Sequence record: OR352955.1
Direction: 5' to 3' (one strand)
Source: Escherichia phage AV125
Length of the DNA: 64,000 nucleotides
Of the stretch, positions 4,401 to 62,021 are shown one piece after another (the stretch's first letter is position 1; each line of letters begins with the position of its first letter). Made by a program: the position numbers and the translations under genes. The notes beneath the pieces are model-generated. The model searched no databases and had not been told where the DNA came from. It saw nothing but the letters and a program-made list of their open reading frames with translations.

Positions 4401-4610
4401 ATGAAGAATTTGAAAACTGTCACAATGTTCTTGACTGATCCTACACGTGTGCAAGCACTGGCTAAAGCCAGCCGTGTAGCTGTAGAATTCCAAAACTTTA
4501 AGCCGTCCGTTGTGACAGGCAGTGAAACGTGTGTTATCGATTTCATTAACGAATACTTCCGAGGGAATCCGGTTGGTCGTTACTTTATTAAGGGTCTGAA
4601 GGATGCATAA
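4401..4610 (+). CDS. hypothetical protein
   Basis: 69-aa ORF, RBS GAGGAG. Confidence 0.5.
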   Translation: MKNLKTVTMFLTDPTRVQALAKASRVAVEFQNFKPSVVTGSETCVIDFINEYFRGNPVGRYFIKGLKDA

Positions 4611-8032: not shown

Positions 8033-8209
8033 ATGGCTACTTTTCAACAATTGAAAGATGTTTCACGTTTAGTAAGAAAAATCCGAGAAGCAGACGCTGC
8101 TGTGCGGAATGCATTAACGCCAGCAGAGCGTGAAGATCTTGAAGAGGAGGTTAAAACAGCCGAGAATGCTTTTGCTGTGTATCTTTCAACACTGTACACA
8201 GGGGGTTAA
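8033..8209 (+). CDS. hypothetical protein
   Basis: Start at ATG 8033 (RBS AAGGAGGAAG); 58 aa. Confidence 0.5.
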   Translation: MATFQQLKDVSRLVRKIREADAAVRNALTPAEREDLEEEVKTAENAFAVYLSTLYTGG

Positions 8210-8524
8210 ATGTCAGAAGAACTTAAAGAATTTTATCAAGCCTATCATAATTGGCTGTTAGCTGGTGCTCCAGATAATAATCCTTTCTGGCACGATAAAG
8301 GTTTGTGCAGTTGCCTCTATCTTTGGTCTGGTGGTTATGATGACCTAAATTATGAAATGCAAATGCAATTTCGAGAAGCAGGATTGTCTGAAGAATACCC
8401 GTTTGATGACGGAGACTGGTTTAAATATGATTTTGCACAAAGAAACGGGCTATTGCATTTGAATGCTGCCCGTATAAGATGGGTAAAAGATCATGCTACA
8501 CAGGAGGATGTGCAATGCCAATAG
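8210..8524 (+). CDS. family A small protein (paralog 3 of 7)
   Basis: FYQAYHNWLLAGAP, KGLCSCL, EEYPFD, RIRWVKDH. Confidence 0.7.
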   Translation: MSEELKEFYQAYHNWLLAGAPDNNPFWHDKGLCSCLYLWSGGYDDLNYEMQMQFREAGLSEEYPFDDGDWFKYDFAQRNGLLHLNAARIRWVKDHATQEDVQCQ

Positions 8525-9854: not shown

Positions 9855-10301
9855 ATGACTAAAGTGCGACATTATGCTGTAAACTGCAATGATGTTTGGC
9901 GTTTGTGTCCTGATGATCCGACAGAAGGCACATTTGTAAGATATGAGGATTATAAAGAGTTATCGGATGCTGTGATCGCATTGTTAACTGATATCCGTTC
10001 ACGTTATCCAGGACAAGATTTCACTTGCCCTCACATCAAACTTCTTGCTTGTCTGGTAGAAGGTGAGAAAGAAGTGGAAGATGGCTTCAAGCGTGTAGAG
10101 TATCAAGGTGAAACTTTAGAGGTTCCTGAATTTGTTAATTATATTGCAACAGATTCGAGTGGCGAGCGTTATGGCTACAGCCATAAGCCAGAGATTCCTG
10201 ATTGGATTCCCGCTTGGAGATATTCCGTTAGTACCGGAGACTATATCTTCCTTGGTGTAGGTAGTAGTAAGGATTGGCGTTTCTCTTTGACAGAGGTTTA
10301 A
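9855..10301 (+). CDS. hypothetical protein
   Basis: 148-aa ORF. Confidence 0.55.
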   Translation: MTKVRHYAVNCNDVWRLCPDDPTEGTFVRYEDYKELSDAVIALLTDIRSRYPGQDFTCPHIKLLACLVEGEKEVEDGFKRVEYQGETLEVPEFVNYIATDSSGERYGYSHKPEIPDWIPAWRYSVSTGDYIFLGVGSSKDWRFSLTEV

Positions 10302-13958: not shown

Positions 13959-14630
13959 ATGAAAAAGTTTGTTGTTTACAGTCGTCTTTCTAAACAGAAA
14001 AAAGGTGAGGCACAATATGGTATGGAGAGCCAAGAGAACGATATCCGTTACTTCTTAGACTCTGTGCCTGATGCGGAAGTTATTGGTCAATTTTCTGAAT
14101 ACTATTCGGGTAAGGGCGATTGGAAGCAACGTAAGGAACTGGTTAAAGCGGTTGAAATGTGTAAAGCTACCGGAGCAACTTTATTGGTAGCTAAAGTTGA
14201 CCGCTTGGGTCGTAACAACGCCTCCGTAGCAACTCTTCTAGAAATGATCGATGTTAAGATAGCCATCATGCCAGACGCAGATAAAATGGTTATACAGCTT
14301 CTGTCTGTTCTGGCTGAACAAGAAGTTAGAGGTATTGCTGATCGTATTAAAAAGGGTCTTGCTGTAGCAAAAAGCAAAGGTGTTTTATTAGGCAGTGCTA
14401 ATCCTAAAACTGCCGCTGCACGTAGAAAAGGAAAAATGGAATACAACTCTGTTAAAGCAGACGCTTTTGCAGAGACATTCCGTGAACGTTTGGAGATCCT
14501 TAGAGATTTAAATACACCTTACAAAACTATTGCTGAAAAATTCAATAGTAAGAAAATAGCAACAGCACGTGGTGGTAAATGGGATGCTAAAACTGTTTCT
14601 CGTTTGTGTGCCAGACTGAACATTAAATAG
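13959..14630 (+). CDS. serine recombinase (resolvase/invertase family)
   Basis: YSRLSKQ near N-terminus (catalytic Ser region), VAKVDRLGRN (DRLxR motif), C-terminal HTH-like TIAEKFN...TVSRL; 223 aa. Confidence 0.6.
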   Translation: MKKFVVYSRLSKQKKGEAQYGMESQENDIRYFLDSVPDAEVIGQFSEYYSGKGDWKQRKELVKAVEMCKATGATLLVAKVDRLGRNNASVATLLEMIDVKIAIMPDADKMVIQLLSVLAEQEVRGIADRIKKGLAVAKSKGVLLGSANPKTAAARRKGKMEYNSVKADAFAETFRERLEILRDLNTPYKTIAEKFNSKKIATARGGKWDAKTVSRLCARLNIK

Positions 14631-59894: not shown

Positions 59895-59966
59895 GGCCCT
59901 GTAGCTCAATGGGAGAGCTGTCGGCTCATAACCGATAGGTAGCTGGATCGAAACCAGCCAGGGCCA
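59895..59966 (+). tRNA. tRNA-Met (anticodon CAT; could also be Ile2 or initiator)
   Basis: Cloverleaf folded by hand: acceptor GGCCCTG/CAGGGCC, anticodon loop CTCATAA, T-loop ATCGAAA; CCA encoded. Confidence 0.8.
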
Positions 59967-59971
59967 CCAAA

Positions 59972-60043
59972 GTCTTTATGGTGTAATGGATAGCACAGGA
60001 GTCTTCTAAACTCTTAGTCAAGGTTCGATTCCTTGTAAAGACA
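59972..60043 (+). tRNA. tRNA-Arg (anticodon TCT)
   Basis: Acceptor GTCTTTA/TAAAGAC, anticodon loop CTTCTAA, T-arm CAAGG-TTCGATT-CCTTG; CCA encoded. Confidence 0.8.
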
Positions 60044-60242
60044 CCAGAACATTTTAACATGAATTAGCTCAAGTGATTTGAACCCACTACTGATCATGGT
60101 GGCAGAGAATGAGGCAAGTATGTCAGACATTATAAACAAAGGCCACGGTTATATTAGAAGACATAAATGCTCGAAGAGCACCGTTCGTGGAGAACGGGGG
60201 TTGGTGGAGTCACCATTCATGGTAAAATGTTTTAAAAAACTA

Positions 60243-60271
60243 TTGACAACAAACATTATTTTATGTTAGAT
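60243..60271 (+). promoter_or_regulatory. sigma70-like promoter within tRNA cluster
   Basis: TTGACA 60243-60248, 17-bp spacer, TTAGAT; 10 nt before tRNA-Ser. Confidence 0.55.
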
Positions 60272-60280
60272 TATAAGTAT

Positions 60281-60368
60281 GGAAGGGCAAATCGATGTGG
60301 CGACGAAAACGGTCTTGAAAACCGCCGAGCTTGAAAGAGCCTTGGGAGTTCGACTCTCCCTCCTTCCG
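60281..60368 (+). tRNA. tRNA-Ser (anticodon TGA), class II
   Basis: Acceptor GGAAGGG/TCCTTCC, anticodon loop CTTGAAA, long variable arm, T-arm GGGAG-TTCGACT-CTCCC; CCA encoded. Confidence 0.8.
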
Positions 60369-60376
60369 CCAGATTA

Positions 60377-60459
60377 GGTAGATTGGTGAAATGGTAGCCA
60401 CGACAGTTTGCTAAACTGTAGTCGGAAACGGCGTGTAGGTTCGAGTCCTACATCTACCG
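60377..60459 (+). tRNA. tRNA-Ser (anticodon GCT), class II
   Basis: Acceptor GGTAGAT/ATCTACC, anticodon stem ACAGT/ACTGT, loop TTGCTAA, variable arm with GAAA loop; CCA encoded. Confidence 0.8.
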
Positions 60460-60461
60460 CC

Positions 60462-60592
60462 AAGTTCTTTTTAATGTAGCTTACTTTAGCAGAGTAAATC
60501 TTCGGCAAGTGGCGGTAACCACTTTACCGATACCTCATAGTTAGTGGTGTGAACACTGGCTATTTTAAAAAGAATTTAAATATTAGTATTTA
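60462..60592 (+). ncRNA. candidate small RNA between tRNAs
   Basis: 131-nt spacer with no tRNA fold and no ORF; internal GTGG...CCAC complementarity; T4 carries small stable RNAs at the equivalent place. Confidence 0.3.
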
Positions 60593-60677
60593 GGTGAGTT
60601 AATTCCGTAGGGGTAGCGGGGCAGACTGTAAATCTGTTATCATTGCGATTCGGGTGGTTCGACTCCATCACTCACCA
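60593..60677 (+). tRNA. tRNA-Tyr (anticodon GTA), class II
   Basis: Closely parallels E. coli tRNA-Tyr: GCAGACTGTAAATCTG anticodon arm, long variable arm, acceptor GGTGAGT/ACTCACC; CCA encoded. Confidence 0.8.
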
Positions 60678-60686
60678 CCAAATTAA

Positions 60687-60769
60687 GATGAGTTGGCTGA
60701 ATGGTTTAAGCGGCGGACTGTTAATCCGTGTTCGAAAGAACAATATAGGTTCGAATCCTATACTCATCG
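60687..60769 (+). tRNA. class II-type tRNA with GTT (Asn) anticodon by loop geometry
   Basis: Perfect 7-bp acceptor GATGAGT/ACTCATC, T-arm ATAGG-TTCGAAT-CCTAT, 3-bp D-stem, 15-nt variable arm (GTTC-GAAA-GAAC), anticodon loop CTGTTAA closed by GCGGA/TCCGT. Confidence 0.5.
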
Positions 60770-60779
60770 CCAGAATTAT

Positions 60780-60856
60780 GGACTTGTAGAGTTAAGGTAA
60801 ACCCCCAGTCGCCAATAGGCTTCTGGAATTGCAGGTATCGAATCCTGCCGAGTCCC
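60780..60856 (+). pseudogene. tRNA-like element with aberrant anticodon arm
   Basis: 7-bp acceptor GGACTTG/CGAGTCC and T-arm GCAGG...TCGAAT...CCTGC present, but no canonical 5-bp/7-nt anticodon stem-loop and no CCA. Confidence 0.3.
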
Positions 60857-60862
60857 AGCATT

Positions 60863-60934
60863 GCTCCTATAGTATAATGGCTATTACAACGGTTTTGTAA
60901 TCCGTGGATCTCTGTTCGATTCAGTGTGGGAGCA
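60863..60934 (+). tRNA. tRNA-Thr (anticodon TGT)
   Basis: Acceptor GCTCCTA/TGGGAGC, anticodon loop TTTGTAA with a 4-bp stem, T-loop TTCGATT; CCA encoded. Confidence 0.65.
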
Positions 60935-60937
60935 CCA

Positions 60938-61200
60938 ACACAACATTAAGAGCACTGTGATTGATCGTCGTATCCTGTGCACAAGGTCTGCTCGAAAGAC
61001 AGTGTTCTTAGTATTGTGTTGATCACAAAAAGAGTCACCCGAAACTTGACCGGAGTAGGGTTGGATGGGGCAAAATGAGAAGCGGCTCTCCCATCGACAG
61101 CAACGAAGAATAATATTTGACTTTGGTTTTGTATTATTTTAAGTTAGCTTACCGAACGTAGGGCTAGTCACCCAACGGGATACTCGTCACTGTCCCAATC
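60938..61200 (+). ncRNA. candidate structured RNA or spacer within tRNA cluster
   Basis: About 260 nt without ORF or tRNA fold; CACTGTG ... ACAGTG and other inverted repeats. Confidence 0.25.
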
Positions 61201-61210
61201 AATAAAAGTC

Positions 61211-61240
61211 TTGACAACAAATAGTAAAATGTAGTATAGT
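61211..61240 (+). promoter_or_regulatory. sigma70-like promoter within tRNA cluster
   Basis: TTGACA 61211-61216, 18-bp spacer, TATAGT; 11 nt before tRNA-Gly. Confidence 0.55.
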
Positions 61241-61251
61241 AAATATATATG

Positions 61252-61322
61252 GCGTTCTTGGTGTAGCGGTAGCATTCCGTCCTTCCAAGTCGGCGGCACG
61301 AGTTCGATCCTCGTAGAACGCT
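61252..61322 (+). tRNA. tRNA-Gly (anticodon TCC)
   Basis: Acceptor GCGTTCT/AGAACGC, anticodon loop CTTCCAA, T-arm ACGAG-TTCGATC-CTCGT; CCA encoded; D-arm not cleanly resolved by hand. Confidence 0.65.
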
Positions 61323-61423
61323 CCAAATTATTTAATAAAGGGTTGCCAGAAAACTTTCTCTTTTACTCATGGTTTTCTCCTTCTCTCACACTTCTTCTGG
61401 TTGCCCTTCATTAAATGATTTAT

Positions 61424-61496
61424 TGGTTTGTAGTGTAGTCCGGTAGCACACGACACTTTGACTGTCGTAGGTTTGGTTCAAATCCAGACAGACCAG
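61424..61496 (+). tRNA. tRNA-Gln (anticodon TTG)
   Basis: U1-A72 acceptor TGGTTTG/CAGACCA, anticodon stem CGACA/TGTCG, loop CTTTGAC, T-loop TTCAAAT; CCA encoded. Confidence 0.8.
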
Positions 61497-61592
61497 CCAT
61501 ATAACAAAGGTGAGTCACTACCTTAAGTGTGAAGTTAAAAACGAGGAGCCGCCGAACACTTTCTTTTGCGGTGTACCTTTAGAATGTTATCA

Positions 61593-61666
61593 CGGGACGT
61601 AGCACAGCTTGGTAGTGCGCTCGCTTTGGGAGCGAGAGGTCGAGTGTTCGAATCACTCCGTCCCGA
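61593..61666 (+). tRNA. tRNA-Pro (anticodon TGG)
   Basis: C1-G72 acceptor CGGGACG/CGTCCCG as in E. coli tRNA-Pro, D-stem GCAC/GTGC, anticodon stem CTCGC/GCGAG, loop TTTGGGA; CCA encoded. Confidence 0.85.
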
Positions 61667-61675
61667 CCAATTAAA

Positions 61676-61746
61676 TGTTTCGTAGTTCAATGGTAGAACC
61701 CACGACTGATAATCGTGAGACACAAGTTCGATTCTTGTCGAAACAA
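61676..61746 (+). tRNA. tRNA-Ile (anticodon GAT)
   Basis: Acceptor TGTTTCG/CGAAACA, D-stem GTTC/GAAC, anticodon stem CACGA/TCGTG, loop CTGATAA; CCA encoded. Confidence 0.8.
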
Positions 61747-61751
61747 CCAGT

Positions 61752-61821
61752 TTCCCGTTAGACTTACAGGATAAGAGTTCCACAGCTTATTGTGATGCTG
61801 GTTCGAATCCAGCACGGGATA
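61752..61821 (+). pseudogene. tRNA-like element with non-canonical anticodon region
   Basis: Acceptor TTCCCGT/ACGGGAT (6 of 7 pairs) and perfect T-arm GCTGG-TTCGAAT-CCAGC, but the central region only forms ATAAG/CTTAT with a 10-nt loop; no CCA. Confidence 0.3.
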
Positions 61822-61827
61822 CATAAT

Positions 61828-61903
61828 AGCGGGATAGAGGAGTCTGGTCGTCCTCGCCAGTTTCATATGCTGGAGATCATCGGTTCAAATCCGATTCCCG
61901 CCT
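61828..61903 (+). tRNA. tRNA with CAT anticodon (Met or Ile2), A1-C72 acceptor mismatch
   Basis: Anticodon stem CCAGT/GCTGG, loop TTCATAT, T-arm ATCGG-TTCAAAT-CCGAT, acceptor AGCGGGA/TCCCGCC; CCA encoded. Confidence 0.65.
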
Positions 61904-62021
61904 CCAAATATCGCTTGCCAGCGGTATCTTTGAAGACCTTGCCTGGTTCCTTCTAAGATGGAGGGGTGCGACTCCTTAACGCACAATTATAATAAAGCAT
62001 TTCAACTTAACAGTATTTACT

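Follow-up and report, generated by a model that had tools for sequence, protein, structure and literature searches.

A class II-like tRNA-Asn with a covarying extra arm in Escherichia phage AV125 and in diverse other phages

Long-arm bacterial transfer RNAs (tRNAs) are listed as those for Ser, Leu, Tyr and Sec (PMC7609411, PMC9976931), and we asked what to make of a gene in Escherichia phage AV125 (sequence record OR352955.1) that joins such an arm to an asparagine anticodon. The gene, tRNA-Asn(GUU), lies at 60687-60772 on the plus strand of the 64,000-nucleotide (nt) stretch of DNA that was analysed, hereafter the window, and a sequence-only reading had offered three explanations for it, namely a mis-folded call, an anticodon-switched tRNA or a tRNA-derived regulatory RNA. 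Our answer is that the gene and its fold are real, that the gene very probably encodes a genuine Asn-decoding tRNA, and that, with a probability of roughly three in four as judged from its sequence and its relatives, it is a functional phage elongator tRNA-Asn(GUU) belonging to a widespread phage-borne structural variant.

Including its encoded CCA, the gene spans 86 nt and was recognized by both ARAGORN and Rfam RF00005, with the layout GATGAGT-TG-GCTGAATGGTTTAAGC-G-GCGGA-CTGTTAA-TCCGT-GTTCGAAAGAACAAT-ATAGG-TTCGAAT-CCTAT-ACTCATC-G-CCA. The acceptor 5' strand GATGAGT (60687-60693, with pairs G1-C72 and A2-U71) pairs at 7 of 7 positions with 60762-60768 and is followed by a D-arm (GCTGAATGGTTTAAGC, 60696-60711) with a stem of 3 base pairs (bp), GCT at 60696-60698 with AGC at 60709-60711, where G18G19 is present, U16 is kept and positions 13-22 form an unpaired G-A. 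The anticodon stem (60713-60729; GCGGA at 60713-60717, TCCGT at 60725-60729, one G-U pair) closes the 7-nt loop CTGTTAA (60718-60724), in which the anticodon GTT occupies 60720-60722 and A37 is present. The 15-nt variable region (GTTCGAAAGAACAAT, 60730-60744) consists of GTTC (60730-60733), a GAAA loop (60734-60737), GAAC (60738-60741) and then AAT, giving a 4-bp extra arm with 0 nt unpaired before it and 3 nt after. The gene is completed by a T-arm with a canonical T-loop (ATAGG-TTCGAAT-CCTAT, 60745-60761) and by 60762-60772, which holds the acceptor 3' strand ACTCATC, the discriminator G73 (60769) and CCA (60770-60772); its acceptor/T geometry is 7/5. The sequence-only reading had described the 7-bp acceptor, the T-arm, the 3-bp D-stem and the 15-nt GTTC/GAAC arm, all of which lie where it placed them, and it had called the architecture class II-like, a description that holds in that the variable region is at least 10 nt long with its own stem-loop and the D-stem has 3 bp. 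The extent that it gave, 60687-60769, was right for the tRNA body and too short at the 3' end, where CCA is encoded at 60770-60772.

ARAGORN, run on the gene as had been proposed, called tRNA-Asn(gtt) at 60687-60772 and so agreed with the earlier placement of GTT in a closed 7-nt loop, and RF00005 matched 60687-60769 with a score of 62.1 bits (E = 4.8e-11), above its gathering score of 29, full-length (model 1-71) with a 12-nt insertion placed in the variable region; neither assigned a different anticodon or a standard class. The minimum-free-energy fold of the single sequence is the cloverleaf plus a fifth helix, GUUC/GAAC, capped by GAAA.

This fifth helix is under evident constraint among homologues. 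In an alignment of 35 homologues with a 15-nt variable region, ungapped from the anticodon arm onward, the cloverleaf and extra arm were paired in 96.3% of cells versus 65.5% after shuffling (0 of 500 shuffles reached the observed value), with a covariation score of 0.79 versus 0.19 and with 34-44% paired in partner-slid controls. All five helices covary, including 7 of 7 acceptor pairs, and the T-arm is 100% paired, while the core pairs of the extra arm take many forms: 12 AU, 12 UA and 11 GC at the first; 14 GC, 8 CG, 8 UA, 4 AU and 1 UG at the second; and 24 CG, 7 AU, 2 GC and 1 UG at the third. RNAalifold predicts the extra arm from this alignment unaided. Across 92 unique long-arm Asn sequences, the variable region measures 11-19 nt (mode 15) and its stem mostly 3-4 bp, as a rule under a GNRA cap, with 48 distinct stems, a GAAA loop in 40 and an encoded CCA in 50; the modal 15 nt equals the 5-nt loop of class I plus a 10-nt hairpin (3 bp and a GNRA loop). 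Compensatory changes preserve the arm in phages of great diversity, and this covariation over at least 48 distinct stems rules out the mis-folded call. The D-arm differs as well, its fourth stem pair being Watson-Crick in 24% of long-arm versus 81% of class I Asn tRNAs, and in 0% of long versus 71% of short Thr tRNAs. Because gain of the arm accompanies loss of the 13-22 pair, we infer that long-arm tRNAs adopt a class II-type core.

Evaluating how far this form extends, we found it essentially confined to phages and tRNA arrays. A sensitive blastn search with the 86-nt gene matched 757 phage records, and twelve matched records from unrelated taxa were inspected. Eleven of the 12 encode a GTT-anticodon tRNA, 81-87 nt long, whose variable region measures 12-15 nt, namely T4-like phages (Serratia CHI14, Klebsiella KPV15), T5-like phages (T5_ev212, Salmonella SB9, Proteus Stubb), Vequintavirinae (rV5-like; Klebsiella Seu621, Erwinia pEp_SNUABM_01), VEcB, PWKp16, the jumbo phage Muenster and Pseudomonas phage 2PS, and the remaining one, a Kuttervirus, has an ordinary 75-nt Asn gene. 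The groups in which homologues of 81-87 nt with GTT occur include Justusliebigvirus, Marfavirus and jumbo Klebsiella and Pseudomonas phages. An exact-match search of IMG/VR with the AV125 anticodon-plus-arm sequence found nothing, and a degenerate spacing pattern (an Asn anticodon arm and then a T-arm at long-arm spacing) was used instead, giving at least 120 loci; ARAGORN called 118 of the 121 matches listed as Asn(gtt), 79-91 nt long, and these 121 records (the 3 uncalled ones included) hold 90 unique, highly diverse sequences. Since an IMG/VR scan at class I spacing likewise lists at least 120 loci, frequencies were taken from the first 80 loci of a combined-spacing scan and are rough: 10 of these loci are long-arm, and within viral tRNA arrays there are 9 long-arm versus 29 class I Asn genes, or about 24%. 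Comparison with other phages thus shows a widespread, conserved phage form in place of a curiosity of one genome.

Cellular genomes gave a different picture. The long-arm pattern had just 37 matches in 185,579 bacterial and archaeal species genomes (one genome per species), in keeping with the earlier remark that a long-arm Asn tRNA is atypical, and about 20 of the 37 are true long-arm Asn tRNAs. Approximately 13 of these belong to tRNA arrays, with 7-35 genes in 8 kb, and the others stand alone in their 8-kb stretch; the arrays are likely mobile or phage-derived. A blastn search with the AV125 tRNA against 5,426 E. coli genomes returned no match at E <= 0.01, so that it is not a host gene or a common prophage gene there.

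To judge from its determinants, the tRNA body carries Asn-type features and not those of Ser, Tyr or Leu. The identity set of AsnRS comprises the three anticodon bases (G34, U35 and U36) and G73, and it converts tRNA-Lys (PMC9976931). All four elements are held by AV125 tRNA-Asn, whose G26 (60712) and anticodon stem-loop are identical to positions 26-43 of E. coli tRNA-Asn. This host tRNA (class I, 76 nt, median 4 copies per genome), the sequence of which has a 100% match in 5425 of 5426 E. coli genomes, also shares GUU, G73-CCA and the 7/5 geometry but differs in its 5-nt AUGUC variable loop, its 4-bp D-stem, its U1-A72 and its G46, for which AV125 tRNA-Asn has no equivalent. G73 is present in 87 of 89 long-arm Asn tRNAs versus 86 of 89 class I Asn tRNAs from the same loci, and U1-A72 in 56 of 89 versus 72 of 88. 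The G1-C72 of AV125 departs from the U1-A72 typical of bacterial tRNA-Asn; that pair is required for the GatCAB route and not for AsnRS, and since E. coli relies on AsnRS, G1-C72 is not disqualifying.

Measured against the other types, AV125 tRNA-Asn lacks the class I body (a 4-5-nt variable loop and a 4-bp D-stem), which is the variant feature itself. With its G73 and GUU it has neither the A73 and GUA of tRNA-Tyr nor the A73 of tRNA-Leu (A73 is found in 64 of 64 phage Tyr and 160 of 162 phage Leu tRNAs), and with A2-U71 and a 4-bp arm it lacks the G2-C71 (109 of 114 phage Ser tRNAs; the long-arm Asn family is mixed) and the 5-7-bp arm of tRNA-Ser. Bacterial class II tRNAs (Tyr, Ser, Leu) have the same kind of long stem-loop arm and a 3-bp D-stem, and in length and flanks, though in shape only, the arm is of Tyr type: long-arm Asn tRNAs have a stem of 3-4 bp preceded by 0-1 and followed by 3-4 unpaired nt, whereas Ser arms have 5-7 bp flanked on either side by about 1 unpaired nt (mode 1 nt after) and Leu arms have 1 nt after, making the AV125 arm shorter and otherwise anchored than those of Ser and Leu. 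Mimicry of Ser was considered and rejected, the arm geometry and the 2-71 pair being unlike Ser.

In the decoding route that we propose, tRNA-Asn would be transcribed with its neighbors (Ser-Tyr-Asn-Thr) and processed from a multimeric precursor; host AsnRS would then charge it, as expected because the published identity set is intact, and the charged tRNA would read AAC and AAU, frequent codons in this AT-rich phage (window GC 38.6%; 28.7 AAT and 19.1 AAC per 1000 in the codon use of its open reading frames). Tolerance of the long arm by AsnRS is assumed in this scheme, and one consideration counts against the assumption, namely that AsnRS is a class II synthetase and that this class is generally held to approach the tRNA from the variable-loop side. 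A tRNA-derived regulatory RNA, the third of the explanations offered earlier, is not favored, because the homologue in phage T5 acts together with T5 tRNA-Lys and tRNA-Thr to help restore growth and infection after cleavage by the PARIS defense system.

This T5 connection bears on what the arm might do. PARIS cleaves host tRNA-Lys, tRNA-Thr and tRNA-Asn (Belukhina et al. 2025, PMC12409363); the co-expressed T5 variants of these three are necessary and sufficient for growth rescue, and the rescue of T5Mos and Bas34 depends on T5 tRNA-Asn (PMC12409363). Its nuclease AriB cuts at 40|41, cleavage requires contacts beyond the anticodon arm, and in the model AriB touches the D-loop and other distal parts as well (PMC12409363). 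T5 tRNA-Asn is homologous to the AV125 gene (87% identity over positions 24-77) and alike in design, with 83 nt, a 3-bp D-stem, a GUC-GAAA-GAC arm, G73 and CCA. Among the class I-type tRNAs of T5, an over-long variable region is found only in Thr(UGU), of 87 nt, and in this Asn(GUU), and both belong to the trio of T5 tRNAs that neutralize PARIS AriB. As a separate observation, the T5-type Thr(UGU), with an arm A-GGA-GUAA-UCC-CGUU of the same design as in Asn, is seen at 8134-8220 on the minus strand of locus L291 (T5_ev212) and at 4406-4492 of locus L025, and the armed gene is common to 92 T5-like records.

Given this setting, we suggest that the extra arm, which would exit the anticodon stem at position 44 and thus a few nt from the AriB 40|41 cut, would together with the remodelled D-arm hinder the docking of tRNA-targeting nucleases, with recognition by AsnRS and the ribosome kept. 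Because the arm lies near that cut, AriB is modelled as contacting the D-loop and contacts outside the anticodon arm are required, an anti-nuclease shield is the role that we favor, though at odds clearly short of even. It is possible, if somewhat doubtful, that such armored phage tRNAs use the mini-hairpin and the class II-type core to sterically block nucleases docking at the anticodon stem and D-arm (AriB or OLD-family Toprim tRNases, for example), and we hold equally tentatively that an armored class of defense-targeted class I tRNAs would cover chiefly Asn(GUU), joined in T5 by Thr(UGU), leaving synthetase identity untouched. If true, this would amount to a widespread, unremarked class of phage tRNAs and to a resistance route distinct from point substitutions. 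Within viral arrays the extra arm is strongly enriched in Asn relative to the other class I types of the same arrays, and on those other types extra arms are found at 6.3% in long-Asn loci versus 2.4% (p = 7.5e-4), a co-occurrence that lends weak support because the statistics ignore phylogeny; for Thr(UGU) alone, co-occurrence of the arm with long-arm Asn was not significant (p = 0.52).

Several observations weigh against a shield. In AV125 tRNA-Asn the AriB site is still of host type (U36AAUC|C41), the CNG/CNG motif that P2-OLD cuts is retained, and there is no substitution at or around AriB site 39-41 or at D-loop U16. T5 tRNA-Asn has U28-A42 where AV125 keeps the host-type C28-G42, and this substitution could alone explain the resistance of the T5 tRNA; a U28-A42-type change protects phage tRNA-Thr from P2-OLD. 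The PARIS paper ascribes resistance to substitutions close to where AriB cuts and says nothing of the arm (PMC12409363), and anti-PARIS activity is demonstrated for T5 only. The AV125 Thr(UGU) is class I and the AV125 cluster, by ARAGORN, is without Lys(UUU). In none of the viral-array loci examined does Lys(UUU), the main AriB target, have an extra arm. The tRNA-Asn of SP15 failed to rescue phages from PrrC170 (PMC11555353), and the coincidence of arm and PARIS in T5 is post hoc, with a chance probability of about 2% by estimate. Known nuclease-escaping phage tRNAs (T5 tRNA-Lys from AriB, tRNA-Thr from P2-OLD and mycobacteriophage anticodon-loop variants) are likewise copies of host tRNAs targeted by defense, but they rely on point substitutions, located in the anticodon loop or stem or in the D-loop; AV125 tRNA-Asn has no such change in its anticodon arm, and what sets the gene apart from the host's is an extra helix and a reshaped D-arm.

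A serious rival, which we also consider possible without being likely, holds that the arm has no adaptive role and is a hairpin insertion in an Asn supply gene, acquired by an ancestral phage tRNA-Asn, tolerated by AsnRS and the ribosome, locked in by co-adaptation of the D-arm and core, and spread by descent and by the exchange of arrays. Phylogenetically the trait is clustered, a long-arm gene having another long-arm gene as its nearest neighbor in 88 of 97 cases, and loss of the 13-22 pair shows such co-adaptation of the core; the long arm is missing from 58 of about 167 unique phage Leu genes, which suggests relaxed constraint on arm length, and the intact nuclease sites of AV125 tRNA-Asn agree with this account. 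A neutral hairpin sits less easily with its persistence through very deep divergence (48 distinct stems) and a strong enrichment of GNRA loops (GAAA in 40 of 92), with its enrichment in Asn over other class I types and its near absence from cellular core sets, and with its coincidence with the PARIS-relevant tRNAs of T5.

Once the variable and anticodon arms are left out of the comparison, the identity of some long-arm genes to class I Asn genes reaches 87%, and what separates the closest long-arm and class I pairs is a clean hairpin insertion of 9-12 nt together with an altered D-arm. This insertion into an Asn body, taken with the Asn-type identity, leads us to read the family as tRNA-Asn turned class II-like and not as a class II tRNA with a swapped anticodon. 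The anticodon-switched Ser, Leu or Tyr tRNA suggested by the sequence-only reading is set aside on these grounds, namely G73 in 87 of 89, U1-A72 in 56 of 89 and the hairpin insertion that separates the closest class I Asn genes. Tyr, Ser and Leu were also tried as a general origin and rejected, same-locus acceptor similarity across the family showing no preferred type.

A local version of such an origin, in which an adjacent class II tRNA-Tyr was duplicated and acquired A36U and A73G to yield a gene that now works as tRNA-Asn, strikes us as unlikely. The candidate parent, tRNA-Tyr(GUA), lies at 60593-60680 on the plus strand, 6 nt upstream of Asn (88 nt with CCA; Rfam 39 bits; annotated as tRNA-Tyr in OR062524), was overlooked by ARAGORN, and is probably co-transcribed with tRNA-Asn. 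The two acceptors are identical at 12 of 14 positions, compared with at most 6 of 14 for all other tRNAs in the window, the loops CUGUAAA (Tyr) and CUGUUAA (Asn) are one base apart, the extra arms of the family resemble those of Tyr in geometry (3-4 bp and then 3-4 unpaired nt), and AsnRS needs just the anticodon and G73. However, the D-arm, T-arm and variable arm of AV125 Asn and Tyr are dissimilar, the Asn and Tyr acceptors of T5 agree at 4 of 14 positions, the Tyr acceptor of VEcB is unrelated to its Asn acceptor, and family-wide acceptor similarity to Tyr is an unremarkable 4.67 of 14; moreover, several long-arm genes are closest to class I Asn genes, and the U1-A72 of most family members is an Asn trait absent from Tyr.

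We regard as still less probable a decoy or competitive inhibitor that ties up tRNA nucleases or other host factors and does not mainly translate. The PARIS authors raise this option for over-expressed viral tRNAs (PMC12409363), and the anticodon arm does copy the host target perfectly on an altered body, yet the 7/5 geometry, G73, CCA, T-loop and G18G19 are all intact and conserved family-wide, which a decoy would not need.

Charging by SerRS, with Ser inserted at Asn codons as deliberate mistranslation, is very improbable. It has precedents of a kind in nematode nev-tRNAs, which are class II with Gly or Ile anticodons and are Leu-charged (PMC3333845), and in allo-tRNAs, which have 8/4 or 9/3 acceptor/T geometry (PMC5389517); these likewise pair a long arm with an anticodon outside Ser, Leu and Tyr, but they keep the identity of a class II parent and mis-decode, whereas the identity elements of AV125 tRNA-Asn agree with its anticodon and its geometry is 7/5. 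SerRS ignores the anticodon and recognizes the long arm and G73, serine identity resting mainly on the variable arm according to a review; AV125 tRNA-Asn offers the long arm, G73 and G1-C72, and the AV125 tRNA-Ser(GCU) has an arm of equal size (A-GTCG-GAAA-CGGC-GT). On the other side stand A2-U71 in AV125, where G2-C71 is, by the same review, conserved in bacterial tRNA-Ser and absolutely so in that of E. coli, and is present in 109 of 114 phage Ser tRNAs, the U1-A72 of most family members, the longer and differently anchored Ser stems (5-7 bp and 1 nt after, versus 3-4 bp and 3-4 nt after), the strict conservation of the AsnRS identity set and of the E. coli-identical anticodon arm, and the T5 homologue's part in rescue when PARIS depletes host tRNA-Asn, tRNA-Lys and tRNA-Thr. 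Lastly, a chance tRNA-like fold or pseudogene, for which the single-sequence fold z-score of just -1.97 might speak, is refuted by the comparative data, given the 62-bit Rfam match, the ARAGORN call, sequence conservation in relatives and covariation of five helices.

Turning to the genomic setting of this tRNA-Asn, the AV125 stretch is that of a phAPEC8-like coliphage (Phapecoctavirus, Stephanstirmvirinae) and matches Escherichia phages vB_EcoM_3A1_SA_NWU and ESCO13 at 100% identity. The gene is already labelled tRNA-Asn in GenBank OR062524 and in many relatives, is 100% conserved in several phages and is at least 95% identical in 66 records. It belongs to a tRNA cluster at 59895-61906 with 11 genes, all on the plus strand, in which the class I tRNA-Thr(UGU) lies 90 nt downstream of tRNA-Asn. 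A promoter-like TTGACA-18-TAGATT with TG (60243-60272, plus strand), identified by consensus match only, lies upstream of the Ser-Tyr-Asn-Thr sub-cluster; each sub-cluster is preceded by promoter-like sites and a terminator-like hairpin follows the last gene, the sites found in this promoter and terminator scan being suitably placed but not more numerous than expected from shuffled sequence. At the end of the cluster, a second tRNA with a CAT anticodon (61828-61906, plus strand, 79 nt) has a T discriminator and an Rfam score of 50 bits, the lowest among the cluster genes called by ARAGORN (tRNA-Tyr, at 39, is lower), and may be an Ile2 (lysidine) or initiator-type tRNA instead of an elongator Met.

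Other tRNAs of viral arrays also vary in this region. Extra arms are found on Cys, Trp, Glu, Met, Gly and His tRNAs as well, though on no Lys(UUU) or Arg(UCU) of the loci examined, and phage tRNA-Leu is often without its long arm, the short genes combining a 5-nt variable loop with A73 (for example at 9881-9957 and 14050-14126 of the T5 locus L291, and in IMG/VR loci L018, L019 and L025), so that remodelling of the variable arm in phage arrays runs both ways. ARAGORN calls of Ile(tat), 91-96 nt long, in loci L028, L031, L032, L034, L035 and L059 have 21-26-nt variable regions with a common CAGAT(T/A)A motif, as do a Met call in L024 and a Pro call in L053; these may represent a longer extra arm, an insertion or a different tRNA family.

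Among cellular matches, four Micromonospora and Verrucosispora chromosomes (L257, L258, L262 and L286) have very dense arrays of 23-35 tRNA genes in 8 kb, each including an 89-90-nt long-arm Asn(GUU), and these arrays resemble mobile or phage-type units. Two Saprospiraceae metagenome-assembled genomes show the Asn anticodon-arm pattern beside a normal 75-nt Asn gene, thrice at 128-nt spacing in one (L265, 5498-5796) and twice, 418 nt apart, in the other (L255, 4397-4857); ARAGORN does not call the repeat copies as tRNAs, and they may be degenerate tandem tRNA-like repeats. In Azoarcus sp. L1K30 (L289, 114-200), an 87-nt Asn(GUU) has its variable region lengthened by a 10-nt tandem duplication (CCGTAGGTCA/CCGTAGGTCC) and is otherwise canonical, representing a separate route to a long variable region.

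The gene was thus already annotated, and what appears to be new is a widespread, covarying, phage-restricted class II-like tRNA-Asn with a possible link to tRNA-based immunity. Our literature search found no description of a long-arm phage tRNA-Asn, although older subscription papers and those of the 1980s on T5 tRNAs lay outside it and an earlier description is possible. In phage Sf14, the Asn-GTT gene scores best with a non-Asn isotype model, the significance of which was called unknown (PMC12482277), and the long-arm form explains such disagreement between isotype model and anticodon for phage Asn-GTT genes. The form accounts for roughly a quarter of the Asn genes in the viral tRNA arrays sampled and includes that of phage T5. 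The extra arm can serve as an easily recognized structural sign that a tRNA array is phage-derived. For tRNA engineering it is of note that a long variable arm on tRNA-Asn is presumably tolerated by AsnRS, EF-Tu and the ribosome alike. The arm also raises a testable idea, that phage tRNAs may evade tRNA-cleaving immunity (PARIS, retron-Eco7, P2-OLD, PrrC, Schlafen) with the anticodon arm unchanged; should the arm prove neutral, the family would still represent a natural conversion of a class I into a class II tRNA.

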